This document shows, one piece after another, positions 2,376 through 24,572 of a stretch of 64,000 bases of DNA. The notes under the pieces were generated by a model, which made no database searches, was not told where the DNA came from, and saw only the letters and a list, made by a program, of their open reading frames with translations. Positions within the stretch are counted from its first letter, which is position 1; every line of letters begins with the position of its first letter. The position numbers and the translations under genes are program-made. The stretch lies in NCBI GenBank assembly GCA_964483115.1, contig CAYZZF010000003.1:2772-66771 (forward strand), read 5' to 3'. The stretch comes from an uncultured Gammaproteobacteria bacterium (lineage in GTDB: Bacteria > Patescibacteriota > Microgenomatia > Levybacterales > UBA12049).

Positions 2376-2458
2376 CCCAGATGGCGGAATTGGCAGACGC
2401 GCTGGCTTTAGGAGCCAGTGCTCGTGAGAGCTTGAGAGTTCGACTCTCTCTCTGGGCA
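2376..2458 (+). tRNA. tRNA-Leu (anticodon TAG)
   Basis: Acceptor GCCCAGA/TCTGGGC. Anticodon stem CTGGC/GCCAG with loop TTTAGGA. Long variable arm. T-arm GAGAG-TTCGACT-CTCTC. Discriminator A. No encoded CCA. Confidence 0.75.
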
Positions 2459-2464
2459 CTAATT

Positions 2465-3292
2465 ATGGACTCTACTATTGAAAAACAAGAAGACGGGACA
2501 ATAAAACTTACTATTACCATACCTCTTATAAAAATCAAGAAGGCGAAAGAAGAGATTTTGGAAGAAATCGCAAAAGAGGCTAAGATTGCCGGTTTTAGAA
2601 AAGGCAAAGCGCCAAAAAAACTTGTTGAAAAGAAGTTAGACCAGGGAAAACTCCATGAAGAAAGCCTTAAAAAAATTCTGCCTATAGCATATTCTGAGGC
2701 GGTAAAAAAACATAATATTACTCCAATAATGAATCCTAAAATTCACGTAGAGGATCTTTCAGATGATAAAGATTGGAAATTTACTGCCTTAACGTGTGAA
2801 GCACCACAGATTGATCTTACTGAGTATAAAGACGCAATTAAAAAACTCACTGCAAAAAATAAAATTGTAATTCCTGGTAAAGAACAAACGCAAATCAAAC
2901 TTGAGGAGATAATAGATGAGCTTCTTAAAAACATTAAAGTAAAAATTCCAAAAATTATTATTGAGCAGGAAGCGCAAAAACTCCTTGCTCAAACTCTCGA
3001 TGAAATAAAAAGACTGGGTCTTACCCTTGACCAGTATCTTGCATCAACAAATAAAACTATCGAGAGCTTACAGTCAGAATACGCAACAAAGGCTGAAAAT
3101 GATATAAAGATTGAATTTGCTCTTCAAAAGATTGCAGATGAAGAAAACATAACAGTGACTAATGGCGAGATAGATGAAGCGATACAAAAAGCAAAAGATG
3201 AAACGGAACGAGAAAGATTAGAAGCGAATCGGTACCTTTTAGCAAGCATCATTCGTCAGCAAAAAACGCTTGATTTCCTTAAAAGTTTATGA
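2465..3292 (+). CDS. tig: Trigger factor (short form)
   Basis: N-terminal ribosome-binding signature GFRKGKAPKKLVEKK matches GFRPGKVPRKVV. Start moved to the ATG after the tRNA. Shorter than the canonical ~430 aa protein. Confidence 0.55.
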   Translation: MDSTIEKQEDGTIKLTITIPLIKIKKAKEEILEEIAKEAKIAGFRKGKAPKKLVEKKLDQGKLHEESLKKILPIAYSEAVKKHNITPIMNPKIHVEDLSDDKDWKFTALTCEAPQIDLTEYKDAIKKLTAKNKIVIPGKEQTQIKLEEIIDELLKNIKVKIPKIIIEQEAQKLLAQTLDEIKRLGLTLDQYLASTNKTIESLQSEYATKAENDIKIEFALQKIADEENITVTNGEIDEAIQKAKDETERERLEANRYLLASIIRQQKTLDFLKSL

Positions 3293-8813: not shown

Positions 8814-9005
8814 TTTTAAGAATAATCTTAAATGAAAAAACAAAGACCAAGAAAAAATATAAATTTTTGAGAAACCCATTCGGAGAGGTCGGAAACAAAC
8901 TCTTATAGAACGTTTAATAGATACATTAAGAACATAAAAATCAAATTAGTGAACATTAAGAATAAATAGTAAAAATAAAATATATTTGATATTTAAAATT
9001 TTATT

Positions 9006-9730: not shown

Positions 9731-10768
9731 ATGGAAGAAGAGTTAATCCAAATTAAGAATGCGGCAGTATCGTTAATTTTGGAAGCAAAAAATCAAGAAG
9801 AACTCGAAGAAATAAAGCTTCAGTTTCTGGGAAGAAGTGGAAAGCTGACACTTGCCATAAAAGAAATCCCTAAATTACCTATTGAGAAAAGGCCTGAAAT
9901 TGGAAAACTTGCAAATGAAGTTAAGAACACAATTGAGGAAACTTTAGAAAATCAAAAATCGAAAATCAAAAATCAAAAATTAGAAGCTGCAAAGATTGAG
10001 ATTGACAGGACAGAACCTGGGATAGAACCTGAAATAGGACACATTCATCCAATGTCCCAAGTCATTTATGAAGTTGTGGATATATTTAAAACTTTGGGAT
10101 TTCAAGCAGCAGACGGGCCCGAGATAGAAACTGATTACTACAATTTTGAAGTTTTAAATATCCCCAAGGATCACCCCGCACGAGATATCCAACAGACATT
10201 GTACTTAGACACAAGAAACAGTAAGGAAACGCCCGGAGAAATATTGCTTCGAACTCAGACGTCCAACATGCAAGCAAGAATCATGGAAAAAATTAAACCT
10301 CCATTTAGAGTTATAGTCCCAGGGAAGGTATTTAGATACGAGCAGGTAGATGTTTCTCACGGATTTGAGTTTCAACAATTTGAAGGATTCGCAGTTGATG
10401 AAAATATCAGATTAACAGATTTATTTGGAACTATCGAATATTTCTTTAAGAAATTCTTTGGTGAAAAAACTAAAGTCCGCTTTGTATGCCATAACTTTCC
10501 TTTTGTAGAGCCCGGGGCTGAAGCCTATATTAACTGTAATGCTTGTGGGGGAAAAGGCTGCGTCTTCTGTAAAAATTCCAGTTGGGTAGAGATATTAGGA
10601 GCAGGAATGATACATCCTAATGTTTTAAAAAGTGTTAATATTGATCCAAATAAATATCAAGGCTTTGCCTTTGGAGTTGGTTTGTCAAGACTTGCAACTT
10701 TAAAATATCAAATGGATGATTTACGGCTTCTGACAAACCCCGACTTAAGAATATTAAATCAGTTTTAA
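9731..10768 (+). CDS. pheS: Phenylalanyl-tRNA synthetase alpha subunit
   Basis: ILLRTQTSNMQAR, FRYEQVDVSHGFEFQQFEGFAVD, and class II motif 3. Confidence 0.85.
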   Translation: MEEELIQIKNAAVSLILEAKNQEELEEIKLQFLGRSGKLTLAIKEIPKLPIEKRPEIGKLANEVKNTIEETLENQKSKIKNQKLEAAKIEIDRTEPGIEPEIGHIHPMSQVIYEVVDIFKTLGFQAADGPEIETDYYNFEVLNIPKDHPARDIQQTLYLDTRNSKETPGEILLRTQTSNMQARIMEKIKPPFRVIVPGKVFRYEQVDVSHGFEFQQFEGFAVDENIRLTDLFGTIEYFFKKFFGEKTKVRFVCHNFPFVEPGAEAYINCNACGGKGCVFCKNSSWVEILGAGMIHPNVLKSVNIDPNKYQGFAFGVGLSRLATLKYQMDDLRLLTNPDLRILNQF

Positions 10769-10787
10769 TGAATATTAAATACTAAGT

Positions 10788-12683
10788 ATGTTGGCACCTT
10801 TATCTTGGCTTAAAGAATACGTCGATATAACTTTATCTCCAAAAGAGCTGGGAGAACGCTTAACTGAAGTTGGGCTAGGTACTGAAAAAATTACAAAAGT
10901 TGATAGTGATATAATTTTTGAACTTGAAATAACTCCAAATCGCCCGGATCTTTTATCGATAATAGGAATAGCTCGGGAAATTGCAGCGATCGAGAAAAAA
11001 AGAATTAAATTTCCAGGTGTAATCGTGACCCACCCCGAAGGTGTAATTGGAAAGCATAAGAAGATATTGCCTCTCGAAATTAAAACTGATTTTAAAATTA
11101 ACCCAAGATTTACTGGTATTATTATAGATAATGTAAAAATTGGAGAGTCTCCGAACTGGATTAAAGAAAGATTGGCGAAAATAGGACAACGACCCATCAA
11201 TAACATTGTAGATATTACTAATTATGTAATGTTTGAGCTTGGCAATCCACTTCATGCTTTCGATTATGACAAAATAAAAGGCCACGTTATGAAAGTTCAC
11301 AAGACACAGGGAGGAGAAAAGTTTAAGAGTGTCGATGAAATATCTTACCATTTGCCTAAGAACGCTGTAGTTATGTCCGATAGCGAAAGTATAATTGACC
11401 TTTGCGGAATAAAAGGAGCTTATAATAGCGGAACTTTTAAAGAAACAAAAACAATTTTTATACGAGTGCCCGTTGAAGTTGCAACTCTTATTCGAAAAAC
11501 ATCTCAGTCTTTAAATCTTCGTTCTGAGGCTTCAAGTATTTTCGAAAGAGGAGTAAATTCTGGCGGGACAATAGAAGCCTTGCAAAGATGCGTTGATTTA
11601 ATTTTAGAAATCGCAGGAGGCGAAATCGCAAGCGAAATTTATGATCTAAAAAAGGGTGATTTTTCTCCGTGGAATGTAAATTTAAATCTTCAAAGACTTA
11701 ATAAATTACTCGGAATTTCTATTGAAGAAAGGACCGTTTTGAACATTTTAAAAAGATTAAATCTTAATCCTAAAAAAATATCAAAAGATATAATCAAGGT
11801 AACTGTTCCAACCTACAGAAATGATTTAAAAATAGAGGAGGATATAGTTGAAGAAGTTTCAAGATTATACGGCTATAATAATTTTCCAAAAACATTGCCC
11901 GAAGGGAAAATACCTACGAAAACAGCACCTTACTTTAAAGATTATAGGCTTGAAGAAAGAATCAAAGGTACTCTTAAAAGCTGCGGATTTTCAGAAATTT
12001 ATACCTATAGTCTTATAAGCGATAAGGATCTCCTAAACTTTGGTATTGACCCTGATAAAGTGCTTCTAGTAGATAATCCTGTAAGCTTGGAATTTGAGTA
12101 TTTAAGACCAACGCTAAAAATAAATTTGATAAAGGCGCTTAGGGAAAATTTGCCGTATTTTGAGAAAATAAACTTATTTGAACTCGGAAAAGTCTATCTT
12201 GGGCAAAGTCTTGACAGTATAAAAGAAGACTATATGCTCTCTGGCATTTCCAATAGTAAAAATTTTTATGAAGTGAAAGGAATTTTGGAGAGATTACTTG
12301 AAGAGATCGGAGTTAAAATGGACCTGAGCAAAAATATTGAAGTGATAGGGGAGGGGATTTTGTTTGAGATTAACTTTACTGAAATTCTTGAAAAAATAAA
12401 TTTGCAAAAAAAATTTGTTCCCATACCTAAATATCCCCCGATAGTTGAAGACATCAGTCTAAAAATAAATCCAAAAATAAAATATGATGAAATTGTTAAT
12501 CTTATTAAAAAGCAAAGCGATCTTGTTACCAGTATTACTCTGATTGATGAATTTAAAGACAAAAAAACATTTAGAATAGTGTATCAGCATAAAGAACGAA
12601 ATCTTACAAATGAAGAAGTAGCAAAAATCAGGAAGAGAATAAGTAATGAGCTTAAAACCCAACTCAAAGCAGAAATTGTTTAA
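10788..12683 (+). CDS. pheT: Phenylalanyl-tRNA synthetase beta subunit (shortened)
   Basis: N-terminus MLAPLSWLKEYVDI...LTEVGLGTE and the B3/4 and B5 regions. 631 aa against about 800 canonical. Confidence 0.8.
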   Translation: MLAPLSWLKEYVDITLSPKELGERLTEVGLGTEKITKVDSDIIFELEITPNRPDLLSIIGIAREIAAIEKKRIKFPGVIVTHPEGVIGKHKKILPLEIKTDFKINPRFTGIIIDNVKIGESPNWIKERLAKIGQRPINNIVDITNYVMFELGNPLHAFDYDKIKGHVMKVHKTQGGEKFKSVDEISYHLPKNAVVMSDSESIIDLCGIKGAYNSGTFKETKTIFIRVPVEVATLIRKTSQSLNLRSEASSIFERGVNSGGTIEALQRCVDLILEIAGGEIASEIYDLKKGDFSPWNVNLNLQRLNKLLGISIEERTVLNILKRLNLNPKKISKDIIKVTVPTYRNDLKIEEDIVEEVSRLYGYNNFPKTLPEGKIPTKTAPYFKDYRLEERIKGTLKSCGFSEIYTYSLISDKDLLNFGIDPDKVLLVDNPVSLEFEYLRPTLKINLIKALRENLPYFEKINLFELGKVYLGQSLDSIKEDYMLSGISNSKNFYEVKGILERLLEEIGVKMDLSKNIEVIGEGILFEINFTEILEKINLQKKFVPIPKYPPIVEDISLKINPKIKYDEIVNLIKKQSDLVTSITLIDEFKDKKTFRIVYQHKERNLTNEEVAKIRKRISNELKTQLKAEIV

Positions 12684-12687
12684 TCCT

Positions 12688-12742
12688 CACGTGCAATCGA
12701 GATACACCCCGAAGGTGAATTTTCGGAAGGTGTAGTTTCGTG
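12688..12742. repeat. Nested hairpin element containing ACACCCCGAAGGTG; likely a bidirectional terminator between convergent pheT and the PBP gene
   Basis: CACG...CGTG outer stem, TACACC...GGTGTA middle stem and CCGAA...TTCGG inner stem. Shares a 13-mer with 16394-16408 and 11030-11045. Confidence 0.45.
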
Positions 12743-12762
12743 TAAGATTTTAAAAATGAGAA

Positions 12763-15186
12763 TTAAAGATTTGGAGTTGGTGTTGGAGTAACTTCAGGAG
12801 TTAAAGAAGGAGAAGGAGAAGGAGAAGGAGTTTGACTTGGACTAGGCTCATTTGAAGAACCACCCGATGACTCTTGGTAATCGGAAGTTTCCGTAGGCGG
12901 ATAATACTCTTGGTCAGCAGCTGAATATGTTTGCCTGAGCCAGGCATCAATTCCTTCCTGCCAACGATTTTTCCCATCGGTTGAAACAGGATCATTTTCA
13001 CGAAACACTATGTAATCTTTTGTATCATAGTCTCCGGCTTTTATCTCTGAATCGTTGGCCAGTTTTCCACTCTGACGTTTTGATAATTTTATTTTTTGAT
13101 AAATTGCACTAGGTCCTGTTGGTTCTGTTCCTTTAATAAAATATTCAGATCTCGTTGGCTGTCCTGAAACAGGCAGTCCTCCTCCTAATGCATCTATCTG
13201 CGTTGCTATAACGTCGTCTGGTTTTTGAGGAAATTCGTCAGGTTTTCCTTTTAAAACAAATGACATAATTCTATTCCAAATAGGCGATGCACCAGTAACA
13301 CCCGATGATATCGCCTGATTCATGGGGCTATTGTCATTATTTCCAACCCAAACGCCAACTACATATGAAGACGTATACCCAACTGTCCAATTATCTCTTT
13401 TTTCATCGGTTGTTCCAGTTTTAACCGAAACCGTTTTCCCCGGAATCACCAGCCAGGAATTCGGGCCAAACTCCATTTTTCTTGCATTATTATCCAAAAG
13501 TATATGGGAAATTAAAAAGGAGATTTCAGGCGAGAGAACTCTTTCTCCTTCATGCTTCTTGTTTTCAAACAGTACGTTTCCTTTACTGTCGGTTACCTTA
13601 AGAATGGCGACCGGATCCTGTTTTATCCCGCCATTTGCAAAAACTCCATAGGCTGTTACCTCAGAAAGAAGACTGGTCTCGCGCCCCCCCAAAACAAGAG
13701 ATAATCCAACATTTGCCATATTCTCAGAAGTAGGCTGCCAATTCTCTATTCCCATATTGTAGGCTTTTTGCATTACGTCTTTTATGCCAACCCGGGCAAG
13801 CATTTTAACAGCCGCGATATTTATTGAATTACCTAGCGCAAATCGCAGCTGTATTGGACCATGGTATTTTTCGTCGTAATTTATAGGAGTATAGATTGGA
13901 TTTTTTGGATCATTTGTTGGAAAATCAGTCTTAGCATCTACTATAAGAGTTGATGGAGTGTACCCTTTTTCAAACGCAACTGAATACATAATTGGTTTAA
14001 GAGATGAGCCGGGTTGGCGATCTGCCAGGGCTGCATTAAAATTTCCATCGTTTTTTGTATCAAAATAGTCTTTACTGCCAACCATAGCCAGAATTTCTCC
14101 GGTTTTTGGATCCGAAACTATCGAAGCTCCATTTCCAACATTATAACCTTTTAGCTTACCGATCTCATCTTTAACTATTTCCTCAGCTTTTTTCTCTATT
14201 GAGTAATCAAGACTTGTTGTAACTTGAAGGCCCCCGTTTTCAACGATATTCTCGCCAAACTGCTTTGCCAAAATCTGTTTTACATACATCACAAAATGTG
14301 GCGCTTTAATAGATGTGTCTTTTTGAGAAAAAGTCTTATCTTTTATTTCATTGAGTGCATCGGTTTTTTGTTCTTTGTTAATTACTTTTTCATTTACCAT
14401 TTGATTTAAGACCTCTTCGGTTCTTGTAATATAGTATTTTTTGCCAGAAAAAGGGGAGTAAGTGCTGGGAGCCTGAGGAAGACCTGCTAAAAATGCACTT
14501 TCTGCCAAATCAAGATCTTTAACTTTTTTCCCAAAATAGGATTCTGCTGCTGCCTCAACGCCAATATTTGCTCCCCCATAGGGAACATCATTTAAATACA
14601 TTTCTAGAATCTGATCTTTTGTATATTTTTTGTCTACTTGAATTGCAAGCATCAGCTCTTTAATTTTTCGAGGAATGGTTCGTTCGGGGGATAGCAGGAC
14701 ATTTTTTACCAACTGTTGAGTAATTGTGGAGCCGCCGGAAAGCTGTCTAAAGAACACGATATTCCTTATAGCTCGAAGATAACCAGTTAGAGAAAAACCT
14801 TGATTTTTGTAAAAATTTTTATCCTCAATCACAATAGTTGCATCCCGAAGAGTTTTGGGAGTGTCAGAAAGTTTTACGTAGGTTCTGTTTTGGGTTTGAT
14901 ATACTGAATAGAGCAATATACCATTTCGATCGTAAATTCTAGTTGACTGGGACAAAGGTGGTTCTATCAATTTTCCTGGAGTTGGCAATTCCCGTCCGTA
15001 CCAAAGAAAAAGCCCAAATGCTACAATAATCAACGCAATTAACCCAATAAAAGAATATTTTGCAAGGTTGCTATACAGGAAAATCTTGGAAGAATACCCC
15101 GATCTCCTTGCTCTTCTGCTTGCATAATCAACCATATCTTTTACTATACCAAATTTACGAAAACCCATCAAATATGCTATACTCAA
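12763..15186 (-). CDS. Class A penicillin-binding protein (bifunctional glycosyltransferase/transpeptidase)
   Basis: N-terminal TM helix. GT51 motifs EDKNFY and ITQQLVKN. Transpeptidase motifs SSLKP, SIN and KTGT. The Pro/Ser/Thr-rich C-terminal tail is encoded by (GGAGAA)n. Confidence 0.85.
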   Translation of the reverse strand: MSIAYLMGFRKFGIVKDMVDYASRRARRSGYSSKIFLYSNLAKYSFIGLIALIIVAFGLFLWYGRELPTPGKLIEPPLSQSTRIYDRNGILLYSVYQTQNRTYVKLSDTPKTLRDATIVIEDKNFYKNQGFSLTGYLRAIRNIVFFRQLSGGSTITQQLVKNVLLSPERTIPRKIKELMLAIQVDKKYTKDQILEMYLNDVPYGGANIGVEAAAESYFGKKVKDLDLAESAFLAGLPQAPSTYSPFSGKKYYITRTEEVLNQMVNEKVINKEQKTDALNEIKDKTFSQKDTSIKAPHFVMYVKQILAKQFGENIVENGGLQVTTSLDYSIEKKAEEIVKDEIGKLKGYNVGNGASIVSDPKTGEILAMVGSKDYFDTKNDGNFNAALADRQPGSSLKPIMYSVAFEKGYTPSTLIVDAKTDFPTNDPKNPIYTPINYDEKYHGPIQLRFALGNSINIAAVKMLARVGIKDVMQKAYNMGIENWQPTSENMANVGLSLVLGGRETSLLSEVTAYGVFANGGIKQDPVAILKVTDSKGNVLFENKKHEGERVLSPEISFLISHILLDNNARKMEFGPNSWLVIPGKTVSVKTGTTDEKRDNWTVGYTSSYVVGVWVGNNDNSPMNQAISSGVTGASPIWNRIMSFVLKGKPDEFPQKPDDVIATQIDALGGGLPVSGQPTRSEYFIKGTEPTGPSAIYQKIKLSKRQSGKLANDSEIKAGDYDTKDYIVFRENDPVSTDGKNRWQEGIDAWLRQTYSAADQEYYPPTETSDYQESSGGSSNEPSPSQTPSPSPSPSLTPEVTPTPTPNL

Positions 15187-15189
15187 TTT

Positions 15190-16377
15190 GTGGATAAAAT
15201 AGATAGAATTTTGACTCGGGGAGTTGCTAATATAATTCCAAAAAAAGACACACTAAAAAAAGCACTTCAAAGTGGTAGAAAGTTAAACATTTATTTAGGA
15301 ATTGACCCAACTTCACCAAGAATTCACTTAGGACATGCTGTTTCGCTTATAAAACTTGCAAAATTTTCTGAACTTAATCATAATGTCACTCTTCTTATCG
15401 GCGATTTTACGGCTCTTGTTAGCGACACATCAGACAAAGATTCCGAGCGGCCTATTTTGAAACCTGAAGAAATAGAAAAGAATTTTAAAACCTATAAAAA
15501 GCAAGCAGAAAAATTTTTGGATTTTTCAAAAGTCAAAATTCGTTACAATAGCGAATGGCTTTCAAAGCTAACTTTTAAAGATATTTTAAGTCTTGTTCAG
15601 AAATTCTCTCTCAATGATTTTATCACAAGAGAGCTCATAAAAAAAAGACTAACTGAAGGAACGCATGTGAGACTTGATGAAGTTTTATATCCTATTATGC
15701 AAGGTTATGATAGTTATTTTATGGATACTGATCTACAGATTGGAGGAACAGACCAAACTTTTAATATGCAGGCAGGACGAACACTGCAAAAAAGACTTCG
15801 AAACAAGAAGTCCTATATTTTAGCAACTGAATTTTTAATGGGAATAGACGGCAAAAAAATGAGTAAAACCTGGAATAATGCAATATGGATTGATGATAAC
15901 GCAGATAACATGTATGCAAAAATAATGTCAATAAGCGATGACTTGATAATTCAATATTTTACGCTGGCAACAAGGATTTCAAATGATGAAATTGAAGAAC
16001 TAAAAAAAGAGCTTGAACAAAGAAGAAACCCGATAAATGTTAAGAAAAGACTCGCGTTCGAGATTGTGAAAAATGTTCACGGAGAAAATAATGCAAAAAT
16101 CGCCCAGAAACATTTTGAAAAAACCGTGCAAAAACAGGAATTGCCAACAAGTATTCCAGTATACAAATATACCGGTGATAGAAGAGATAACATAATTGAC
16201 TTATTGGTTAAAACAGAGTTTTCTCAAAGCCGCGCTGAGGCAAAAAGATTGATCAAACAAGGAGGGGTTGAGATTGATGATGGAAAAATTACAAATCCTA
16301 ACTCAGAAATAGAAATAAAAAATGGTATGATAATAAGGATAGGAAAAAGAAAATTTTTAAAAATCAGGGTACTTTAG
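15190..16377 (+). CDS. tyrS: Tyrosyl-tRNA synthetase
   Basis: HIGH motif (RIHLGH), KMSKT, and a C-terminal S4 RNA-binding domain (RAEAKRLIKQGGVEIDDGKI). Confidence 0.8.
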   Translation: MDKIDRILTRGVANIIPKKDTLKKALQSGRKLNIYLGIDPTSPRIHLGHAVSLIKLAKFSELNHNVTLLIGDFTALVSDTSDKDSERPILKPEEIEKNFKTYKKQAEKFLDFSKVKIRYNSEWLSKLTFKDILSLVQKFSLNDFITRELIKKRLTEGTHVRLDEVLYPIMQGYDSYFMDTDLQIGGTDQTFNMQAGRTLQKRLRNKKSYILATEFLMGIDGKKMSKTWNNAIWIDDNADNMYAKIMSISDDLIIQYFTLATRISNDEIEELKKELEQRRNPINVKKRLAFEIVKNVHGENNAKIAQKHFEKTVQKQELPTSIPVYKYTGDRRDNIIDLLVKTEFSQSRAEAKRLIKQGGVEIDDGKITNPNSEIEIKNGMIIRIGKRKFLKIRVL

Positions 16378-16393
16378 CAAGTGTAAACGTAAC

Positions 16394-16408
16394 ACACCCC
16401 GAAGGTGT
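16394..16408. repeat. ACACC-CCGAA-GGTGT hairpin (REP-like), followed by GGTGTAAA/GGTGAA repeats
   Basis: Same 13-mer CACCCCGAAGGTG as at 12705-12717. Lies just downstream of the tyrS stop. Confidence 0.4.
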
Positions 16409-16440
16409 AAAGGTGAAGGTGTAAACCTGTAAACGAAATA

Positions 16441-16548
16441 TGGAGGTTTTTAGAAGGCATCAATGGATTTGGAAAATTATTGTAATTATTGCATCGCTTG
16501 CTCTTATTGCGGCGTCAGTTCTTCCAGCTCTTAGTCTTCACTAAAATA
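16441..16548 (+). CDS. Possible 35-aa membrane micro-protein
   Basis: MEVFRRHQWIWKIIVIIASLALIAASVLPALSLH has a single TM helix. Preceded by AAATATGGAGG. Below the size cut-off of the ORF track. Confidence 0.2.
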
Positions 16549-16567
16549 TGAACAAGCCTGACTTGTT

Positions 16568-18640
16568 ATGAATCTTAAAACTCCTATCCGTTTGGCAGGA
16601 AATATATTCACAAGATATGCAAACCGTCTTGAAAAACTTGGTATTAAAACCATAGATGATTTTCTCTATTATTTTCCATTTCGTTATGAAGATTATTCCG
16701 TCATTTCGAAAATCAGTCAGGTGCAAAGCGGGGAAGTGGTAACGATCCAGGGAGTCGTAGTTGATATTAAAAATGAATACACCAAAAAATGGAAAAAAAT
16801 TCAGAAAGCAAAGATTGCAGATGAAACAGGAGTAATCGACGTTATATGGTTTAATCAGCCATTTATTTTAAATATAATAAGAAAGAATGATAATGTATCT
16901 CTGTCTGGAAAAATAGGTTTGCATTTAAGTAAATTTGTTCTTGAATCTCCTGATTATGAAGTTATAAATGAACAGACACAAACAATCCATACTGGAAGAT
17001 TAATCCCAATCTATAGAGAAACCAACGGTATTTCGTCTAAATGGTTACGTCGCCAAATATATAAAATCATTAGGGAAAATAAACAAAATATACTCGAATA
17101 TCTTCCTGACTCAATTAAAAAAGATAATGATTTAATGATGTTAAGTGACGCAATTGAACAAATTCACTTTCCAAAATCATTAGAAGATGCTAAAAAAGCA
17201 AGATATCGACTAGCTTTCGATGAATTATTTATTCTCCAACTAACAGCGGCGAAAAGAAGATTTGAATGGAAGAAAAGCCTTACAACCCACCCCTTTTCTA
17301 TAGCAAGCTACAAAAAAAATATTGAGGATTTTTGGAAAAAGCTTCCCTTTGAACTAACAAATGCTCAAGAAAAGGCAGTTTCTGAAATTTTTAAAGATTT
17401 AGGCACAGAGAATCCAATGAACAGACTTTTGGAAGGAGACGTAGGAAGTGGAAAAACAGTCGTTGCAAGCATTGCTATGTATCTAGCTTTCTTAAATGGT
17501 TTCCAATCGGTTCTTATGGCACCAACTGAGATTCTTGCTCAGCAACATTTTAATACTATTTCGAATCTTTTATCTCCATTTAAAGTCAAAGTCAGCCTAA
17601 AAACAGGAAGTATTAAACATAAAGTATCAAGTATAAAGACCGAAAGTAAAAAAATACTCAATACTCAATACTCAATACTCAATACTAACATTTTAGTTGG
17701 GACTCATGCTGTACTTTCTGAAAAGATCAATTTTGAACGTTTGGGACTTGTTGTAATTGATGAACAACAGCGTTTTGGCGTAGAGCAACGGGCAATAATA
17801 AGAGAGAAAGGGGGAAATCCGCACTTTCTTACAATGACTGCAACTCCAATTCCCAGAACCGTTGCTTTAATTTTGTATGGAGACCTTGATCTTTCTTTTT
17901 TGGATGAAATGCCAAAAGGCAGAAAAAAAATTAAAACATGGCTTGTCCCTTCGGAAAAAAGAGATAGTGCCTATCGATGGCTCAAGTCTCAAATTTCAAC
18001 TTTCAAATCTCAGGCTTTTATCATTTGTCCTTTTATTGAAGAATCAGAAAGCATAACTACTGTTAAAGCCGCAACAAAAGAATACGAAAGACTAAAAAAG
18101 GAAATTTTTCCAAATCTCAAACTTGCTCTTCTTCATGGAAAGCTGAAGACCAAAGAGAAAGATTTAATATTGGAAGGTTTCAAAAATAGAAAAACTGACA
18201 TACTTGTCTCAACGCCTGTGGTTGAGGTAGGAATAGATATTCCTAACGCAACAATTATGATGATCGAGGCAGCAGAGCGTTTTGGACTTGCCCAGCTCCA
18301 TCAACTGCGAGGAAGGGTTGGTAGAAGAGAAAAACAATCATATTGTCTATTATTTACAGAGTCACAGCGTGAGAAAACAATTGAAAGGCTTAAAGCGATG
18401 GAAACAATGAGTATAGGCGTAGAACTTGCAGAACTTGATTTAAAACTTCGAGGACCAGGAGAAATATATGGCACAGCCCAACACGGGATTCCAATGCTTA
18501 AAATCGCATCATTTTCAGATATTGCTCTTATAGAAAAGACAAAAAGAGAAGCAAAAAAAATATTTTCAAACATTAAAAGCTATCCAAAACTTTTGGAAAA
18601 AATAGAAAAATCCACAACAAAACAAGTCTCCCCAGATTGA
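16568..18640 (+). CDS. recG: ATP-dependent DNA helicase RecG
   Basis: Wedge/OB domain. Helicase motifs GDVGSGKT and DEQQRFGV. C-terminal ...LHGKLKTKEKD...QLHQLRGRVGR. Confidence 0.85.
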   Translation: MNLKTPIRLAGNIFTRYANRLEKLGIKTIDDFLYYFPFRYEDYSVISKISQVQSGEVVTIQGVVVDIKNEYTKKWKKIQKAKIADETGVIDVIWFNQPFILNIIRKNDNVSLSGKIGLHLSKFVLESPDYEVINEQTQTIHTGRLIPIYRETNGISSKWLRRQIYKIIRENKQNILEYLPDSIKKDNDLMMLSDAIEQIHFPKSLEDAKKARYRLAFDELFILQLTAAKRRFEWKKSLTTHPFSIASYKKNIEDFWKKLPFELTNAQEKAVSEIFKDLGTENPMNRLLEGDVGSGKTVVASIAMYLAFLNGFQSVLMAPTEILAQQHFNTISNLLSPFKVKVSLKTGSIKHKVSSIKTESKKILNTQYSILNTNILVGTHAVLSEKINFERLGLVVIDEQQRFGVEQRAIIREKGGNPHFLTMTATPIPRTVALILYGDLDLSFLDEMPKGRKKIKTWLVPSEKRDSAYRWLKSQISTFKSQAFIICPFIEESESITTVKAATKEYERLKKEIFPNLKLALLHGKLKTKEKDLILEGFKNRKTDILVSTPVVEVGIDIPNATIMMIEAAERFGLAQLHQLRGRVGRREKQSYCLLFTESQREKTIERLKAMETMSIGVELAELDLKLRGPGEIYGTAQHGIPMLKIASFSDIALIEKTKREAKKIFSNIKSYPKLLEKIEKSTTKQVSPD

Positions 18641-18940
18641 AATTAAAAACTTATTCTGTTAAAATTTCATAAATGTCAAGACAAGAAGGACTCCACTCAG
18701 ACTTTTCCGAAATTTCTGATAAATTTGAAGGCGGAGAATTTAGCGGATTTCTACCTTTTTCTGATTTCAAAAGATGGATAGAGAAAGGCAGCTATAGCAG
18801 TCCAAAATGAGCGCATAGAAAGATAAACTCACGGAATTTATATTTATTATACTGATGTTTTAGAAGATAATCCTAATAAACAATTTACTAAAATCAGTTT
18901 CAGGATTGCAGGAAAGCTAAAAATAAAGTAAAATACAAAA

Positions 18941-19162
18941 ATGCCACAGGAACCAAAAAGAAGACATTCAAAACAAAGAAAAGGTAAAAGAAGAAAAAAC
19001 ATAAAACTTAATTCGCCACAAGGAATAATTTGTTCAAACTGTGGAAATATATCAATGCCGCATACTGTTTGCAAAAATTGCGGGTATTATAAAGGAAAGG
19101 AAGTACTAAAGTTAAAAGTCAAAAAACAATCAAAAGAAAAAGCAGATGAAAAATCCTCATGA
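18941..19162 (+). CDS. rpmF: 50S ribosomal protein L32 (zinc-ribbon type)
   Basis: Basic N-terminus KRRHSKQRKGKRR and a CxxC...CxxC pair (CSNCG...CKNCGYY). Confidence 0.7.
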   Translation: MPQEPKRRHSKQRKGKRRKNIKLNSPQGIICSNCGNISMPHTVCKNCGYYKGKEVLKLKVKKQSKEKADEKSS

Positions 19163-19517
19163 CGCGCGACATAAAAAAAGGCAAAGATTGGTCAAAGAAC
19201 TTTTTAAAGAAAGCTTTTATGACCAACCTATAAGTGCAAAGGCTTTAGATATTTTCTCTCAGATTAATTTTCTTAACAAAAATATACAAAAAGCAGCTCC
19301 TCAATTTCCTATAGAAAAAATCAATAAAATTGATTTAGCAGTCCTTCGACTTGCGGTCTATGAGCTTCTTATAGAAAAAAAACAACCGCCAAAAGTAATC
19401 GTTGATGAAGCAATAGAACTTGCTAAAGAATATGGAGGAGAAACAAGTCCTATGTTTGTTAACGGTGTGCTTGGAAACATTATTCAAAATATTTATGAGA
19501 AAACTTCCCAAATTTAA
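19146..19517 (+). CDS. nusB: Transcription antitermination factor NusB
   Basis: LAVLRLAVYELLIEKKQPPKVIVDEAIELAKEYGGETSPMFVNGVLG matches the NusB C-terminal half. Confidence 0.75.
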   Translation: MKNPHDARHKKRQRLVKELFKESFYDQPISAKALDIFSQINFLNKNIQKAAPQFPIEKINKIDLAVLRLAVYELLIEKKQPPKVIVDEAIELAKEYGGETSPMFVNGVLGNIIQNIYEKTSQI

Positions 19518-20157
19518 AAATATAAAACTTTTTGAACAGGCTTTTATACATAGATCATATCTTAATGAGGCAAGACAAAAGAATCTTTCTTCAAATGAAC
19601 GCCTTGAATTCCTAGGAGACAGCATCATATCATTTGTGGTTTCTCACAATCTTTACGATATATATCCAAATTTTGATGAAGGCAGACTAACCAATCTGCG
19701 CTCTATGCTTGTTAATACAAAACAACTGGCGCTTACAGCCAAAGAATTGGGATTTGGCAAACTTTTAAAACTTTCGAAAGGGGAAGAAGAATCAAAAGGA
19801 AGAGAAAATGTAAGTCTTCTTGCAGATAGTTTTGAGGCATTTATTGGTGCGCTTTTTCTAGATCAAGGCATCCAGGAGGTTTCAGACTTTTTAAATTCAA
19901 TATTACTGCCTAAAGCAGAAATTTTTGCTAATAAAACTCTAAAAGATCCAAAAAGTCTCTTGCAAGAACTTATTCAGGCCCAAAGACAACAATCTCCAGT
20001 TTATTCGGTTATTAAAGAAAAAGGGCCTCCTCACAACAAAATTTTCACGGTAAGTGTTTCTACAAACAATACTGTTCTAGGTGAAGGGAAAGGTAAATCA
20101 AAACAAGAAGCTGAGAAAAATGCAGCCAAACAAGCACTTGAAATCCTAAAGTCTTGA
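19495..20157 (+). CDS. rnc: Ribonuclease III
   Basis: Catalytic signature ERLEFLGDS, LADSFEAFIGALFLD, and a C-terminal dsRBD (GPPHNKIFTVSV...GKSKQEAEKNAAKQAL). The listed ORF was trimmed to the Met just before FIHRSY. Confidence 0.8.
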   Translation: MRKLPKFKNIKLFEQAFIHRSYLNEARQKNLSSNERLEFLGDSIISFVVSHNLYDIYPNFDEGRLTNLRSMLVNTKQLALTAKELGFGKLLKLSKGEEESKGRENVSLLADSFEAFIGALFLDQGIQEVSDFLNSILLPKAEIFANKTLKDPKSLLQELIQAQRQQSPVYSVIKEKGPPHNKIFTVSVSTNNTVLGEGKGKSKQEAEKNAAKQALEILKS

Positions 20158-20188
20158 GGGTATTGGCAAATTTTGCTAGAATTGTTTT

Positions 20189-20413
20189 ATGTCACTTGTT
20201 ATAAGATTAAGTAAAACTGGAAAAAAAGGAGAGGCAAAATACAGAATCGTCGTCAAGGAAAGACGAAGTAAAAGAGATGGAAAAGCAATCGAAATACTTG
20301 GATGGTATGAAAAAAGAGAGAGAAAAGTTTTAAAAAAAATAAATGAGAAAAGGTATAGATATTGGAAGTCTCTCGGCGCAAAGCCAAGTACAGCGGTTGA
20401 AAAAATAATTTAA
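20189..20413 (+). CDS. rpsP: 30S ribosomal protein S16
   Basis: MSLVIRLSKTGKKGEAKYRIVV is S16-like. Confidence 0.8.
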   Translation: MSLVIRLSKTGKKGEAKYRIVVKERRSKRDGKAIEILGWYEKRERKVLKKINEKRYRYWKSLGAKPSTAVEKII

Positions 20414-20415
20414 AT

Positions 20416-20655
20416 ATGAAGAAAATTCTCTTTTATATTATCTCCTCGATAGTTGAAAACCCAAAAAAGGTAGACATTCAGGAAGAAGATAATGGGCAAT
20501 TTGTAACTTTTAATGTAGCAGTTGATAAAAATGACATGGGGAAAATAATAGGTAAAAATGGAAGAATCATTCAGGCTATAAGAAATGTATTAAAAATTCC
20601 TGCAATTAAACAAAATAAAAAAATAAATATAGAGCTTTTGGAAAACCCCAATTAA
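20416..20655 (+). CDS. KH-domain RNA-binding protein (YlqC/UPF0109 family)
   Basis: GKIIGKNGRIIQAIRNVL has a GxxG KH motif. Conserved position between rpsP and trmD. Confidence 0.65.
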   Translation: MKKILFYIISSIVENPKKVDIQEEDNGQFVTFNVAVDKNDMGKIIGKNGRIIQAIRNVLKIPAIKQNKKINIELLENPN

Positions 20656-20691
20656 ACTATATCATCAATAATCCATCAAAAAAACTTTTAT

Positions 20692-21426
20692 ATGAGAATA
20701 ACAATCTTGACCCTTTTTAAAGAAATGTTTGGAGGACCCTTTGATTATTCAATCGTTAAAAATTCAATAGACAAAGGGGTAATTAATATTGATTATATAA
20801 ATATCAGGGATTTTGGCATAGGAAAGCACAAAATTGTAGACGACAAACCATACGGAGGAGGTAAGGGAATGGTAATAAGAGTCGATGTTTTAAATAAGGC
20901 AATAGAAGCGGCAAAGCAGAAATTCAAAGAAAAAGGCAAAAAAATGAGTCCGAAAAAACAAAAAGTTATTCTCCTTGATCCCGCTGGTTCCACCTTTAAC
21001 CAAAGAAAGGCAGTGGAATTATCGAAACTTTTGCATCTAATACTTCTCTGTGGTCATTATGAAGGAGTTGATGCAAGAATTAGAAGTTTTGTTGACGAAG
21101 TAATATCTATAGGCGATTTTATTCTAACAGGAGGAGAAATACCTGCTATGTTAATAGTTGACAGTGTTGTAAGGCTTGTACCCCATGTATTAACAAGTGA
21201 GGCAGTTAAAAAAGAATCTTTTTCTCCTTATCTTGAACACCCTCAATATACAAGACCGGAAACATATAAAAATCTTAAGGTTCCAAAGGTTTTAATGTCG
21301 GGAAACCACAAAAAAATAGAAGAATGGAGAAAAAAAGAATCCCTTAAAATAACTCTAAAAAATAGACCTGATTTAATTAAAAGGGGGACGCGGCTGAAGA
21401 CGCGGAAGGAGAGGAAGAAGAAGTAG
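20692..21426 (+). CDS. trmD: tRNA (guanine37-N1)-methyltransferase
   Basis: MRITILTLFKEMF...YGGGKGMV and a SPOUT fold. rimM and rplS are absent from the usual operon. Confidence 0.8.
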   Translation: MRITILTLFKEMFGGPFDYSIVKNSIDKGVINIDYINIRDFGIGKHKIVDDKPYGGGKGMVIRVDVLNKAIEAAKQKFKEKGKKMSPKKQKVILLDPAGSTFNQRKAVELSKLLHLILLCGHYEGVDARIRSFVDEVISIGDFILTGGEIPAMLIVDSVVRLVPHVLTSEAVKKESFSPYLEHPQYTRPETYKNLKVPKVLMSGNHKKIEEWRKKESLKITLKNRPDLIKRGTRLKTRKERKKK

Positions 21427-22099
21427 CTATAATACTTGGCGTCAGGTTGGAGTTCCAAAAAGAAAGTTCTGAGATAAGTTTAAGCCCCTCTGAGGAAATA
21501 GTAGTTATAGGCTCATCATTTTTTAATCCAGCTCTCCTCATTGGTTTATAATAAAATAATATTGTAATTGATGAAAAATTATTGCTTTCACTAATAGTTA
21601 TAACTTCTGATAGGGGAAGTGTTTTGTAAAGTTCATTTAGAAAAGAAACAGTCTTTTTTGGATCTGCTTTAATATTCAAAGACAACTTGAGGAAAGGAAA
21701 ACCCGAAACATTAATAGAGGTTTGTGATAAATCGCCCACTTGAAAATCGTAATCTGAAAGCGAAACACCAGATTTAATTGCTGCAAGCGATATGGCATTA
21801 AGAATTCCTTCAAAATCTTTACCAGCGGGTAGAGCAGAGGACACAAGATTAAACTGCGAATCAAGAGTAGAATCAGATAGATTAGAAAGGAAATTTAGAT
21901 TATTTTGAAGAGTTATAAGCCTTTTATTTTCGCTTTTTGCGTTTTTGCTAAGCACCACCAACTCACGAATTCTTGGTATAATTACAGTCAAAAAAAGAAT
22001 TAAACAAACTAAAATTATAAATATAAATAAAATGTGCTCCCTATACTTAGCATAGATAATTTTGAGTGTATTAATATCTACGTTTAATTTTTCATTCAT
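21377..22099 (-). CDS. pilO: Type IV pilus assembly protein PilO-like
   Basis: Single TM helix then a periplasmic domain. Last gene of the pilM-N-O arrangement. Confidence 0.45.
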   Translation of the reverse strand: MNEKLNVDINTLKIIYAKYREHILFIFIILVCLILFLTVIIPRIRELVVLSKNAKSENKRLITLQNNLNFLSNLSDSTLDSQFNLVSSALPAGKDFEGILNAISLAAIKSGVSLSDYDFQVGDLSQTSINVSGFPFLKLSLNIKADPKKTVSFLNELYKTLPLSEVITISESNNFSSITILFYYKPMRRAGLKNDEPITTISSEGLKLISELSFWNSNLTPSIIATSSSSPSASSAASPF

Positions 22100-22632
22100 A
22101 ATATATCGGTAGTTACAGAAAGAGAGTAAGTGCCATTTTGCACATTAGCCGTGAGAGTATCAACTGTAATATCTTTGATTATTTGTTTTTTTTTTGCCAT
22201 ATCTATTAAATTGTTTAAGAAATTGTTTATCAAAAGCAGAGAGTTTGAAGAAACAACAAGTGTAACTTTACTTTTGTCAATAGATATAGAATTTATTGAA
22301 ACTCCGTCTGGCACCTTCTTAAGAAAAGTGTTTATTGTGATATCATAATTTTGCCTATTCTTTATAATTTCTGAAATACCATCTAGTCTATCTTTTATAA
22401 TAGCCAGTTTTGCTTGTTTCTGTTGTAAAAATGACATATTATAAAACAGTTCATTTTCCTTCTTCTTAATTCGGGCTGGGGACAGTTGCTCACTTAAAAA
22501 AAATAAGAGAATTGATATGACTAAAACAGCTGTAAGAGAACTTAGCGCTAATGTCTTCAGAATTTTTAGCGTTCCTAAAGATTTTTCAGTATCGATCTGG
22601 GCAGGCGGAAGAAGATTTATATCATTTTTCAT
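22096..22632 (-). CDS. pilN: Type IV pilus assembly protein PilN
   Basis: N-terminal INLLP motif followed by a TM helix, the PilN hallmark. Confidence 0.6.
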   Translation of the reverse strand: MKNDINLLPPAQIDTEKSLGTLKILKTLALSSLTAVLVISILLFFLSEQLSPARIKKKENELFYNMSFLQQKQAKLAIIKDRLDGISEIIKNRQNYDITINTFLKKVPDGVSINSISIDKSKVTLVVSSNSLLLINNFLNNLIDMAKKKQIIKDITVDTLTANVQNGTYSLSVTTDIL

Positions 22633-23662
22633 AATCCCTCATCGCCAGTCCTACGGCGATAGTATACTCTGGTGCGTCATCAAGAATCTCTCTAGGTAAT
22701 TCTTGATTTCTAAGTATTTTCCATGGATTAGCAATAACAGTCTCGATATTTACTTTATTTGTAAAAAACAAATCTATTCCAGGAAGTTTTGCTGTTCCTC
22801 CCGAAAGGATTATCTGTCTTATCGGTTTATCTCCTTTATATTTTTCAGAATAAAATGCCAGTGCTTTCCTAACCTCGGCTAATATAGAATCAAGGATTGG
22901 CTCTGTAGCCTTTCCAATTTTCCCTCCAAATATCCCCGTAGAAACTCCGTAACTTTTTTTATATTCTTCGGCCTGTTTTTGCGTAAGTCCAAAATCTGCT
23001 TCAATCGCTCGGTTAATGGCAGAACCTCCGACAGGAATTGAATAGATAAAAATCATAACATTATCCCTTACAATCGCAAGTGCCGTACTGGCTGATCCAA
23101 TATTGACAATAAGAGACGTAGGAAAATTGTCACTTGTGACCAATGCTCTTATAGTTGCCAATATCTGAGTTTCTATTGCATTTATTGTAAGTCCGGCCAT
23201 CGACAAAATTTTCTGATATTTATTTATAAGAAGGGTTGGTGACCCAACTATCAAAATCTGCATTTTTTCTTCCATTATGGCTTGCGGCGGTCTTTTTAGC
23301 ACACTCCAAGCTAGTTTAACTGATGACAGAGGTACAGGAATATGTCGTTCAGCTTCCCAATAGATAGCAGAGGAAAGTTCTTTATCGGATAATACCGGCA
23401 TTTCTATAACATTTGTATATACCTGGTTCTCCGCAAGAGCAATGTTTACATACTTTGTGGTAATCTTGGCTTCATCAATACTTCTTACCAAAGCTCTGGC
23501 CATTTCTTCTTCATCAAGAGGAGACTCTGATAACATCCCTTTTGGAGGAGCTGGGGTGATAAGAGATGCATCAAGTATAAATTCCTCCTTTTGATAAGAT
23601 AACCAAACAATTTTGATAGTTGATACACCGATATCAAGGCCGAAAGGTCTTTTATTCATCAT
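22622..23662 (-). CDS. pilM: Type IV pilus assembly protein PilM (actin-like ATPase fold)
   Basis: GLDIGVSTIKIV and an FtsA/PilM-like fold. Adjacent to pilN. Confidence 0.7.
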   Translation of the reverse strand: MMNKRPFGLDIGVSTIKIVWLSYQKEEFILDASLITPAPPKGMLSESPLDEEEMARALVRSIDEAKITTKYVNIALAENQVYTNVIEMPVLSDKELSSAIYWEAERHIPVPLSSVKLAWSVLKRPPQAIMEEKMQILIVGSPTLLINKYQKILSMAGLTINAIETQILATIRALVTSDNFPTSLIVNIGSASTALAIVRDNVMIFIYSIPVGGSAINRAIEADFGLTQKQAEEYKKSYGVSTGIFGGKIGKATEPILDSILAEVRKALAFYSEKYKGDKPIRQIILSGGTAKLPGIDLFFTNKVNIETVIANPWKILRNQELPREILDDAPEYTIAVGLAMRDYEK

Positions 23663-23667
23663 GAGCT

Positions 23668-24498
23668 TTATCTTGGCGAAAAAATTCCGTATGTAAAATA
23701 CTCGGCAGGAAGCTGAGGAAAGCTTTGAAAAACATTAACCTTACGCGTTACAATATTGCCTGATGTACCAGATGTCCCGATTGATGAAATCATAGAACCC
23801 TGAGAATAAAAAGCTGTAGTAGTACTGCTTGCTCCTATATAAGTATTCGTGTATATAGGAATAACCCTTGCAATTAAACCCGAAGTGACGCTAATTGTTG
23901 CTGAATAGGGGAAACTTTTGCCACCTGCAGTTCCGCTTCCCGAAGTTGAGCTAAAACGATTAGAATTTGCTCTTGTAATGCAGGGATCATATGCATACCG
24001 GGTAAGTGTCTGCGAGGTTTGTGTTCCTGAGATAACTATTATCTCCAAAGCTGCAGGCACATTATTAGGATTATTACAATTGCCCGAAGTATTTCCCCAA
24101 TAGATAGTTAAATTACTTGGACCACTAGGGGACCATGGTTTAGTATAATCGGGGTTATTGCCATTATGCGGAACAAGCCACAAGTCAACGCCTTCATCTT
24201 GCGGTACGAGATTGCCTCCATTTAGTAAGATGCTTGTGCCGCCAACCGCAGCTATATCTGTAGTGTAGCTCGTATTATTAGAGAATGTGCTGCTGAGTCC
24301 TGTACTTGATTGAAGTTGTCGTTGAATTCCAGCTTCGGCAGCAGACAGAGCTTTTGCGGAATCTGCCTCCTCTGTTGATATTTTAAGATTAGTTATACTT
24401 CTGGAGATTACCGATAAACCAACTGTAAGAGAAACAACCATTATCAAAACAACTATCAGAAGGATTTGTCCTTTTTGCTTATATTTCATACTATCCAT
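23668..24498 (-). CDS. PilX-like minor pilin / pilus-associated protein
   Basis: N-terminal GQILLIVVLIMVVSLTVGLSVISRS...EEADSAKALSAAEAGI resembles PilX_N. Ser/Thr/Gly-rich C-terminus. Confidence 0.4.
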   Translation of the reverse strand: MDSMKYKQKGQILLIVVLIMVVSLTVGLSVISRSITNLKISTEEADSAKALSAAEAGIQRQLQSSTGLSSTFSNNTSYTTDIAAVGGTSILLNGGNLVPQDEGVDLWLVPHNGNNPDYTKPWSPSGPSNLTIYWGNTSGNCNNPNNVPAALEIIVISGTQTSQTLTRYAYDPCITRANSNRFSSTSGSGTAGGKSFPYSATISVTSGLIARVIPIYTNTYIGASSTTTAFYSQGSMISSIGTSGTSGNIVTRKVNVFQSFPQLPAEYFTYGIFSPR

Positions 24499-24572
24499 TA
24501 TAATTTTAGCGTATCAATCATTTTTACTGGTGTCAACCCCGTTTGATGAGTGCAATCCCATGTAGCGTCGGG

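Follow-up and report, generated by a model that had tools for sequence, protein, structure and literature searches.

Heptanucleotide repeats are the most abundant class of long simple sequence repeats (SSRs) in many prokaryotes, and slippage of the polymerase by about 7 nucleotides (nt) has been proposed to account for them, at least as the 2007 survey is relayed in later work (survey via PMC4679880; PMC4692102). In Haemophilus influenzae, heptanucleotide repeats mediate phase variation (PMC2651432). Here, we analyze two heptamer arrays that lie inside the coding sequences of pheS and recG, in a 64,000-nt stretch of contig CAYZZF010000003.1 (hereafter, the window) from a Levybacteria genome. 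We consider it probable that both tracts are slippage-born heptanucleotide SSRs of the known prokaryotic kind, filtered by selection within genes. The repeat class and the slippage proposal are thus already known; what is new here is the lineage, which belongs to the candidate phyla radiation (CPR), and the behavior of the arrays inside genes. A literature search on heptamer repeats in Patescibacteria found nothing.

The arrays in pheS and recG

The features on which the analysis centers, with the tools or comparisons that define them (TRF, Tandem Repeats Finder), are as follows:

9731–10768, plus strand: pheS, phenylalanine-tRNA ligase alpha subunit, 345 residues (Pfam tRNA-synt_2d, 1.9e-88; Phe_tRNA-synt_N at residues 21–86; homologues)
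9948–9980, plus strand: heptamer array (AAAATCA)x4.7 with one G variant, inside pheS (TRF; array also in L001 at the same offset)
16568–18640, plus strand: recG helicase, 690 residues (Pfam wedge, DEAD and Helicase_C; aligned to 1gm5 and 9wm0)
17608–17638, plus strand: degenerate upstream array in recG, AAGTATC/AAGTATA, 70% matches (TRF; clean five-unit array in the relative L167)
17653–17686, plus strand: perfect heptamer array (AATACTC)x4.9 inside recG, residues ~363–373 (100% identity, TRF)

On the plus strand, the pheS array reads GAAAATC AAAAATC GAAAATC AAAAATC AAAAATT (TRF: period 7, 4.7 copies, 92% matches). Its region encodes ENQKSKIKNQKLEA, residues 73–86, with 9948–9980 proper supplying residues 73–84, ENQKSKIKNQKL. 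The perfect recG array encodes LNTQYSILNTN, and both recG arrays are placed between TGSIK and ILVGTHA in helicase domain 1. The coordinates, units and peptides that the initial annotation had assigned to the two main arrays are confirmed by TRF and by translation of the open reading frames (ORFs), and the ORFs of both genes are open across them. Its description of both hosts as essential genes applies to pheS only, as recG is dispensable in model bacteria. The window is AT-rich (GC content 33–38%), and the nearest public PheS and RecG proteins come from Candidatus Levybacteria and Patescibacteria metagenome-assembled genomes (MAGs).

An assembly artefact is ruled out for both arrays, because independent assemblies agree: the pheS array is found again in the independent MAG L001, and two Logan assemblies made independently from the same organism, which match the window at 99.95% identity, have the recG array unchanged. 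We note that these two Logan contigs (L171 and L172, covering window positions 9962–27513 and 10100–27513) both stop at 27513, inside an array in a pilin leader described below, and that one of them begins at 9962, inside the pheS array. We read such breaks as what assembly on de Bruijn graphs with short k-mers would be expected to produce in periodic sequence, and not as proof of polymorphism, although the G/A position of the pheS array may be truly heterogeneous.

The two sites across relatives

PheS has 345 residues in nearly all of the best 120 homologues listed, and the alignment is ungapped at the array. Because this length is the same with or without the array, the pheS array is not an insertion, and instead replaces part of a helix in the N-terminal arm. 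It aligns with the second helix of this arm in P. aeruginosa PheS, and the AlphaFold model has residues 54–89 as one long predicted helix, with a mean predicted local distance difference test (pLDDT) score of 87 for residues 71–80 (~87–91 up to residue 80) and 63 for residues 81–90, the remainder of the model being poor. A comparison at the DNA level places arrays at identical pheS codons in relatives, with each lineage carrying its own homogenized unit at this site:

Window and L001 (PheS 84% identical): AAAAATC
L161: (AAGAATC ATGAATC)x2.5, a 14-nt super-unit
L162: (AAAAGCC AAAAGTC)x2.5, a 14-nt super-unit
L163: AATCAAG
L002: AAATCTC
L082: mixed intermediate of AAATATC, AAATCTC and AAAAATC
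L085: AATCAAG, AATTAAG and AATCAGG
L005 and L086: decayed array

The same site is without periodicity in several further relatives. Because successive units are read in different frames, the 7-nt period cannot stem from selection on the protein, so that a homogenizing process must act on the DNA while the length of the gene stays unchanged. Judged from these alignments, the pheS site is a case of concerted evolution under a length constraint.

A further PheS array was encountered at L140 (10464–10496), in a protein 45% identical to the query, where GAAAATC(AAAAATC)x4 encodes ENQKSKIKNQKL in a different loop (residues ~164–175). Transposition as its source was rejected: the locus had been retrieved through the search pattern ENQKSKIK, an ascertainment bias under which its rarity cannot be judged.

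At the recG site, it is the length that differs. The segment between TGSxK and ILVGTHA spans from ~3 to ~35 residues among Levybacteria RecG proteins, many of which carry 7-residue-periodic peptides there; in the window RecG, the segment exceeds that of T. maritima and E. coli RecG by 7 residues, and the protein as a whole exceeds its closest relatives by 14–16 residues. The array sits in a lineage-specific insertion or indel hot spot, within a variable surface segment. The relative L167 carries five AAGTATC/AAGTATA units, followed after a 13-nt spacer by five AATACAT/AATACAA units; L165 has 21 nt fewer in the second array than L167, and L166 another 21 nt fewer, so that one step in this series is 21 nt, or three units, or 7 residues. 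RecG pairs that share at least 85% identity apart from this segment repeatedly differ by 7 or 14 residues within it, and in other cases by further whole-codon amounts, for instance 3, 9 and 16 residues. P0133 differs from P0175 and P0179 by a 16-residue repeat-derived insertion (25 vs 9 residues) with RecG 93% identical outside the segment, which would imply a very recent gain or loss. The site in L007 holds (CCCTTAC)x4.6. The two recG arms are partly reverse-complementary (AGTAT upstream, ATACT downstream), and the pair folds with a z-score of −2.0 in the window and in L007 and of −3.9 in L167, which gives a hairpin at this pair only moderate support. Alignment to orthologues, which the initial annotation had put forward as the way to recognize lineage-specific surface insertions, thus bears this expectation out for RecG, with its variable surface segment, but not for PheS, which has 345 residues regardless and carries the array in a helix of its N-terminal arm.

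The unit length has direct consequences for the reading frame. Gain or loss of one or two units truncates PheS at 81–91 residues and RecG at 368–380 residues, and three units keep the frame. Full-length products are encoded by ~20 pheS genes read from DNA loci, and every database protein listed (120 for PheS, 120 for RecG) is full length as well, though these sets would by their nature lack truncated alleles. No ON/OFF alleles were found, every pheS and recG orthologue examined being in frame, and the length changes at the recG site that are resolved at the DNA level between close relatives are 21-nt (three-unit) steps. These comparisons do not support the pheS and recG arrays as ON/OFF switches, and suggest that they are instead segments that lengthen or shorten the protein, with single-unit slips, if they occur, removed by selection. 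The initial annotation had taken the pheS and recG copies as an argument against phase variation, and both the in-frame orthologues and the 21-nt recG steps agree with it; since these arrays would not be switches, the repeats in the pilin genes of the window cannot be read as phase variation from sequence alone.

Heptamer arrays in the window and in the lineage

As a null model, we used 100 order-3 Markov shuffles of the 64-kb window and counted arrays at a TRF score of at least 40. The window holds 5, 12 and 2 arrays at periods 7, 14 and 21, against shuffle means of 0.02, 0.53 and 0.14, or 19 arrays in total against ~0.7 expected. Perfect arrays of at least three copies number four at period 7 and one at period 6 in the window, with none at periods 5 and 8–15; in 299 kb of Levybacteria DNA collected around pheS and recG, there are 10 at period 7, one at period 5, two at period 6 and none at periods 8–11. 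Other bacteria, sampled via their pheS loci, yield 9 perfect period-7 arrays of this size in 1.89 Mb, compared to the 10 in 0.30 Mb of Levybacteria DNA. Copy number is peaked: the perfect period-7 runs of the 299-kb set fall into 54 with 2–3 copies, 2 with 3–4, 6 with 4–5, 2 with 5–6 and none with 6 or more, and adjacent periods are nearly devoid of runs above three copies in the same DNA. The usual array, in the window and in related Levybacteria, is 31–37 nt long, or ~5 units, and the density is one array per few kb in the 64 kb of this genome that were examined.

Of 30 arrays, in a sample skewed by the repeated occurrence of pheS loci, 15 fall between genes or at gene edges, a compartment that makes up ~10% of the DNA (~90% being coding). 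Heptamer repeats are therefore a lineage-wide feature, depleted from genes yet present in them, and the initial annotation's proposal of a genome-wide sequence feature is upheld by the 19 arrays of the window and by their counterparts across Levybacteria. In the pheS, recG, prepilin-leader, hydrolase and first RluA-family arrays, no frame of the coding-strand unit contains a stop codon, while the second RluA-family array (AATATTA) and the long pilin leader (TTTAACT) have stop-containing units despite open ORFs; the reverse complements of AAAATCA, AATACTC, AAATCTC and AAATCAC carry stops. The further arrays of the window are as follows:

8930–8980, no strand assigned: decayed period-21 array in the infC–rplT spacer
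12388–12417, plus strand: period-14 array in pheT, residues 534–543, in the linker between the catalytic-like and FDX-ACB domains
25991–26095, minus strand: adjacent arrays (AGTTTAA/AGTTAAA)x4.9 and (AATTTTG)x7.9, at the 5' end and in the long leader of the pilin-like ORF 24573–26078
27484–27520, minus strand: perfect array, coding strand AAATCTC x5.3, forming the leader peptide of a type IV prepilin, MKKISNLKSQISNLNG/GFTLIEL
28489–28522, minus strand: period-14 array in a prepilin peptidase, in the linker between the A24_N and A24 domains
36833–36870, plus strand: array (AAACGGC/AAATGGC/AAATGAC)x5.4 just after the likely ATG of an alpha/beta hydrolase, MNKTANGKRQMTNDKLKVFILHGW (start placed near 36826 by visual inspection, with no tool call)
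38760–38796, no strand assigned: array (AGAATTA)x5.3, 70% matches, at the 3' end of a DegT-family aminotransferase gene
39184–39216, plus strand: period-14 array, AGAAAATTTTTCAA x2.4, in the FemAB-family ORF 38840–39865, residues ~115–126
57049–57074, minus strand: array (TAATATT)x3.7 in an RluA-family pseudouridine synthase, within an insertion
57387–57418, minus strand: perfect array, coding strand AAATCAC x4.6, in the same RluA-family pseudouridine synthase, within an insertion relative to solved homologues
63264–63316, no strand assigned: intergenic array (AAAATTC)x7.9 upstream of dnaB

Several of these positions are occupied by arrays in relatives as well. L170 has an orthologous array with a different unit in the prepilin peptidase linker, and its orthologous pilin leader (9808–9841) is built from (TCAATTT)x4.9 where the window has (AAATCTC)x5.3, both in frame. 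Prepilin leaders across Levybacteria are built from heptamer arrays (listed homologues P0241–P0360), and in the 119 of 120 listed homologues with a cleavage motif, leader lengths peak at 9–10 and 16–17 residues, with smaller groups at 23–24 and 30–31 residues, in steps of 7; 61 of the 119 leaders fall into two residue classes modulo 7 (p = 1.6e-7). As a protein database would not reveal OFF alleles, the pilins may still be phase-variable. In L086 (9505–9569) and L002 (3620–3763), where the gene farther upstream is unannotated, clean heptamer arrays immediately precede rplT, and these loci, together with L005 (11492–11530) and L083 (5577–5630), exemplify arrays placed immediately upstream of rplT or in the pheS–pheT spacer before the pheT start; their units vary between genomes.

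We add four observations from the window. The sole non-heptamer perfect array above three copies among periods 4–15 is the hexamer array (AGAAGG)x4.3 at 12805–12830, near the 3' end of a class A penicillin-binding protein ORF (12763–15186, minus strand). Beside the pilin cluster, ORF 28999–29664 (minus strand) has a weak IS200-like Y1 transposase match (4.8e-9), and on either side of it lie tandem duplications of 14–15 nt, in two perfect or near-perfect copies (28868–28898, 28927–28956 and 29725–29752). A search of Rfam at gathering thresholds returned three tRNAs only in the window, and no known RNA family at any array. The tRNA-Leu gene at 2375–2459 overlaps the 5' end of ORF 2381–3292, whose true start is probably further downstream.

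Explanations and known systems

In the explanation that we favor, arrays would arise and stay homogeneous at the level of the DNA, most likely via replication misalignment in a 7-nt register, and transient misalignment, or conversion, could copy a neighboring unit with the length unchanged. Within genes, selection then passes those arrays whose unit is stop-free in all three coding-strand frames and which sit at a structurally tolerant site (the N-terminal helical arm of PheS, a RecG surface segment that is dispensable, domain linkers, N-termini or signal leaders), and keeps only length-neutral or three-unit changes (21 nt, or 7 residues). The RluA-family arrays, which lie within insertions, and the pheT and peptidase arrays, which lie between Pfam domains, are examples of tolerant sites, and comparison with relatives shows this selective filter. 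Because only neutral or three-unit changes are retained at such sites, the arrays are in-frame and evolutionarily fluid peptide segments. The tolerant sites and in-frame orthologues likewise bear out the initial annotation's alternative that in-frame low-complexity segments are tolerated in genes.

Several points weigh against this explanation. Slippage itself is inferred, and no length change was seen in four imperfect arrays among L086, L168 and L170 (99.8–99.9% identical), on the strength of which rapid copy-number change was rejected. Simple birth-death slippage predicts a monotonic decay of copy number, whereas the observed distribution is peaked. Between genomes with PheS only ~70% identical, arrays keep their positions at no fewer than five loci (the pheS, recG, pilin-leader and prepilin-peptidase sites, and the one upstream of rplT), and such positional persistence could also mean conserved function. 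Length-neutral homogenization in an essential gene would require a conversion-like step. Finally, neighboring arrays strongly tend to be reverse complements of each other, in 15 of 26 pairs, with no direct pair and 4% expected.

An alternative explanation is that the arrays are functional nucleic-acid elements, such as periodic sites for a single-strand-binding protein of the oligonucleotide-binding (OB)-fold/cold-shock type, one per heptamer, or, in a variant, periodic hairpins acting on mRNA stability, translation or replication, with selection holding ~5 units at fixed positions, within genes too. Such an element would account for the tight grouping of array length at 31–37 nt, for the conservation of position across divergent Levybacteria at the five loci named above while the unit changes, and for the excess of reverse-complement neighbors. 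Strong hairpins in other bacteria (z −3.7 to −13) and the folding of the recG pair point the same way, a four-unit preference and inverted pairing are known for Xanthomonas GGGAATC arrays (PMC4692102), and binding of cold-shock proteins to heptamer repeats has been discussed (PMC4679880). However, the units vary by site and by lineage, making sequence-specific recognition unlikely, the array is lost or decayed in many relatives with no other visible change, and the contexts in which arrays lie are very diverse (leaders, linkers, spacers and helix interiors). At pheS, moreover, the array region folds worse than its shuffles (z +1.25) and has no complementary partner array, and a hairpin or RNA structure there was rejected on this z-score. 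On balance, we regard functional elements of this kind as unlikely.

The reverse-complement tally comes from array pairs <200 nt apart in unrelated bacteria. The loci with inverted pairs include L154 (6312–6413), L080 (13591–13684), L104 (6145–6217), L076 (14448–14524) and L038 (4397–4547), among others; the pairs at L154, L080, L104 and L076 form long periodic hairpins in the z range given above, one of them right after a pheS stop codon. Inverted pairing had been reported only for GGGAATC in Xanthomonas (PMC4692102). It is conceivable, if rather doubtful, that ~5-unit arrays are more than debris of slippage, being either maintained for their structure, as a periodic platform of single strands or hairpins, or produced by dedicated register-shift copying, and that across Levybacteria their position is conserved and their sequence free. 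Were this the case, the element would also occur in other phyla, and would be strong enough to persist inside the gene of an essential tRNA synthetase; the four- or five-unit preference, put down to G-quadruplexes (G4) in Xanthomonas, would on this view have a more general origin, independent of G4. Such a more general cause is possible because the A/T-rich arrays here cannot form G4: neither AAAATCA nor AATACTC contains a G-tract, of which a G4 would need at least four per array.

Less probable again is an origin of the arrays from small mobile or foldback elements that entered genes in frame and left these remnants, in the manner of Rickettsia palindromic elements (RPEs), which would apply especially to the recG pair. 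The recG segment is indeed an insertion relative to minimal Levybacteria RecG proteins and to solved RecG structures, its arms show partial inverted symmetry, and its presence differs between proteins that are 93% identical outside the segment (P0133 vs P0179). In pheS, however, the array leaves the length unaffected, and no flanking inverted or direct repeats were seen by eye around either array, no dedicated repeat search having been made; in recG, the arms swap their unit in place and copy number changes in 21-nt steps, which is the behavior of slippage. Units of an identical class do turn up at unrelated sites, in 21 pairs where plain heptamer frequencies would give 1.2. This recurrence is reproduced by seeding on the square or cube of heptamer frequency (8 to 41 pairs expected), and we accordingly dropped the idea of a restricted unit "vocabulary" as the sign of a sequence-specific generator. 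The ENQKSKIKNQKL array in a different loop of the 45%-identical PheS of L140 would also fit a mobile element, but is subject to the ascertainment bias already described. The arrays do not behave as dispersed copies of one conserved element with defined ends, as units differ by site and no shared flanks were seen, and an insertion relative to orthologues lacking the element is found at recG and not at pheS. A mobile-element origin therefore fits the recG insertion only, and the initial annotation's proposal of remnants of element insertion fails at pheS, where length is unchanged, units are lineage-specific at the same codons, and neither terminal repeats nor target duplications were found by eye, again with no dedicated search.

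As a side observation on unit recurrence, AAGAATC and AGGAATC (peptides NQESRI, NQESGI and NQELRI) appear in PheS (L085, L163), in RecG (P0136-like) and in pilin leaders (P0322, P0306). Both come close to the Xanthomonas GGGAATC repeat once G is exchanged for A, a likeness that may be coincidence (PMC4692102).

That the arrays are contingency switches, turning pheS and recG off and on through gain or loss of one unit, is very improbable. The unit is not a multiple of three, so that a single-unit change shifts the frame, heptanucleotide tracts have the H. influenzae precedent cited at the outset, and the Logan contig that starts inside the pheS array could hint at heterogeneity. However, a frameshift cuts PheS to 81–91 residues in a gene that is essential, the orthologues examined are all in frame and the recG length differences are whole-codon, lengths are invariant among near-identical strains, contig breaks are expected from short k-mers, and there are ~5 copies here against 13–38 in known heptanucleotide switches (PMC2651432). 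Of the features that mark phase variation, only the frame-shifting unit is found at pheS and recG; ON/OFF alleles are not, and a dispensable host gene for a surface or restriction-modification function is offered by the pilin-leader arrays alone. For pheS and recG, this explanation is largely refuted.

Chance low complexity, or protein-level selection for lysine- or asparagine-rich heptads in an AT-rich genome, is the least credible explanation, since, for all that the GC content of 33–38% and a hydrophilic pheS tract in a helical arm, with a 7-residue periodicity suited to a coiled coil, speak for it, selection on the protein can yield a 21-nt but not a 7-nt periodicity, intergenic DNA shows the same phenomenon, and the explanation is refuted by the shuffles (0.02 arrays at period 7, where the window has 5) and by the period specificity, with periods 5, 6, 8 and 9 not enriched.

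Taking these alternatives into account, the result removes an apparent paradox, in that frameshift-prone repeats in an essential gene need not mean switching, and it adds the CPR to the prokaryotes in which 7-nt repeats are in unexplained excess. The pheS codons and the recG hot spot form a natural series for unit turnover at fixed length and for three-unit steps, in which slippage and function can be tested against each other. In practical terms, the arrays create 7-residue length polymorphisms in conserved marker proteins, and break short-k-mer assemblies.

Among described systems, the closest is the prokaryotic heptanucleotide long SSR (LSSR) of Mrazek, Guo and Shah (2007; via PMC4679880 and PMC4692102), with which the arrays share head-to-tail 7-nt units, a period-7 excess, a scattered distribution, extragenic enrichment and the attribution to slippage. 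The marks of the class are all found here: tandem copies improbable by chance, an excess at period 7, copy number that differs among relatives, and under-representation in coding sequence. The cases surveyed are mostly large GC-rich genomes and cyanobacteria, whereas the genome here is a small, AT-rich CPR genome, and, unlike those cases, it has about half of its arrays within genes or at gene boundaries, one of these genes being that of an essential aminoacyl-tRNA synthetase. Three-unit steps and unit turnover at fixed length are absent from those LSSR descriptions that we could consult.

The GGGAATC and GGGGA(C/T)T arrays that Rehm et al. (2015, PMC4692102) described in Xanthomonas and Nostoc have a similarly peaked copy number, at four there and about five here, are also frequently found in inverted pairs, and keep the array type between species while the length differs. 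They are G-rich, and their length preference is explained by G4, which the A/T-rich arrays here cannot form (PMC4692102); a length preference common to Xanthomonas and Levybacteria arrays may, by this analogy, need an explanation other than G4. The TAACTGA repeats of marine Beggiatoaceae, cyanobacteria and Bacteroidetes (MacGregor 2015, PMC4679880) are likewise tandem heptamers, in two to six copies and abundant by lineage, and often lie just upstream of start codons, as do the arrays upstream of rplT and pheT here; the tandem heptanucleotides of cyanobacteria (Calothrix, as cited in PMC4692102) may be grouped with them on this secondary account. TAACTGA genomes, however, have one dominant, stop-containing heptamer, which is hence found outside genes, in contrast to the many units here, which are stop-free in the pheS, recG, prepilin-leader and hydrolase arrays.

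The heptanucleotide tracts of H. influenzae hmw (PMC2651432) likewise have a unit that is not a multiple of three, and sit at the 5' end of some genes or shortly behind it, as in the pilin leaders here. They differ in carrying 13–38 copies compared to about five, and, unlike them, the arrays here show no ON/OFF alleles and have housekeeping hosts (PMC2651432). Finally, RPEs (PMC10969869) also give rise to in-frame repeat-derived peptides in housekeeping proteins at fold-compatible positions, and the recG insertion resembles them in being palindromic. They form families of ~150 bp with conserved sequence and one-step insertion, in contrast to the 31–37-nt arrays, varied units and slippage-like steps seen here (PMC10969869), and, unlike an RPE, the pheS array adds no length to its host protein.

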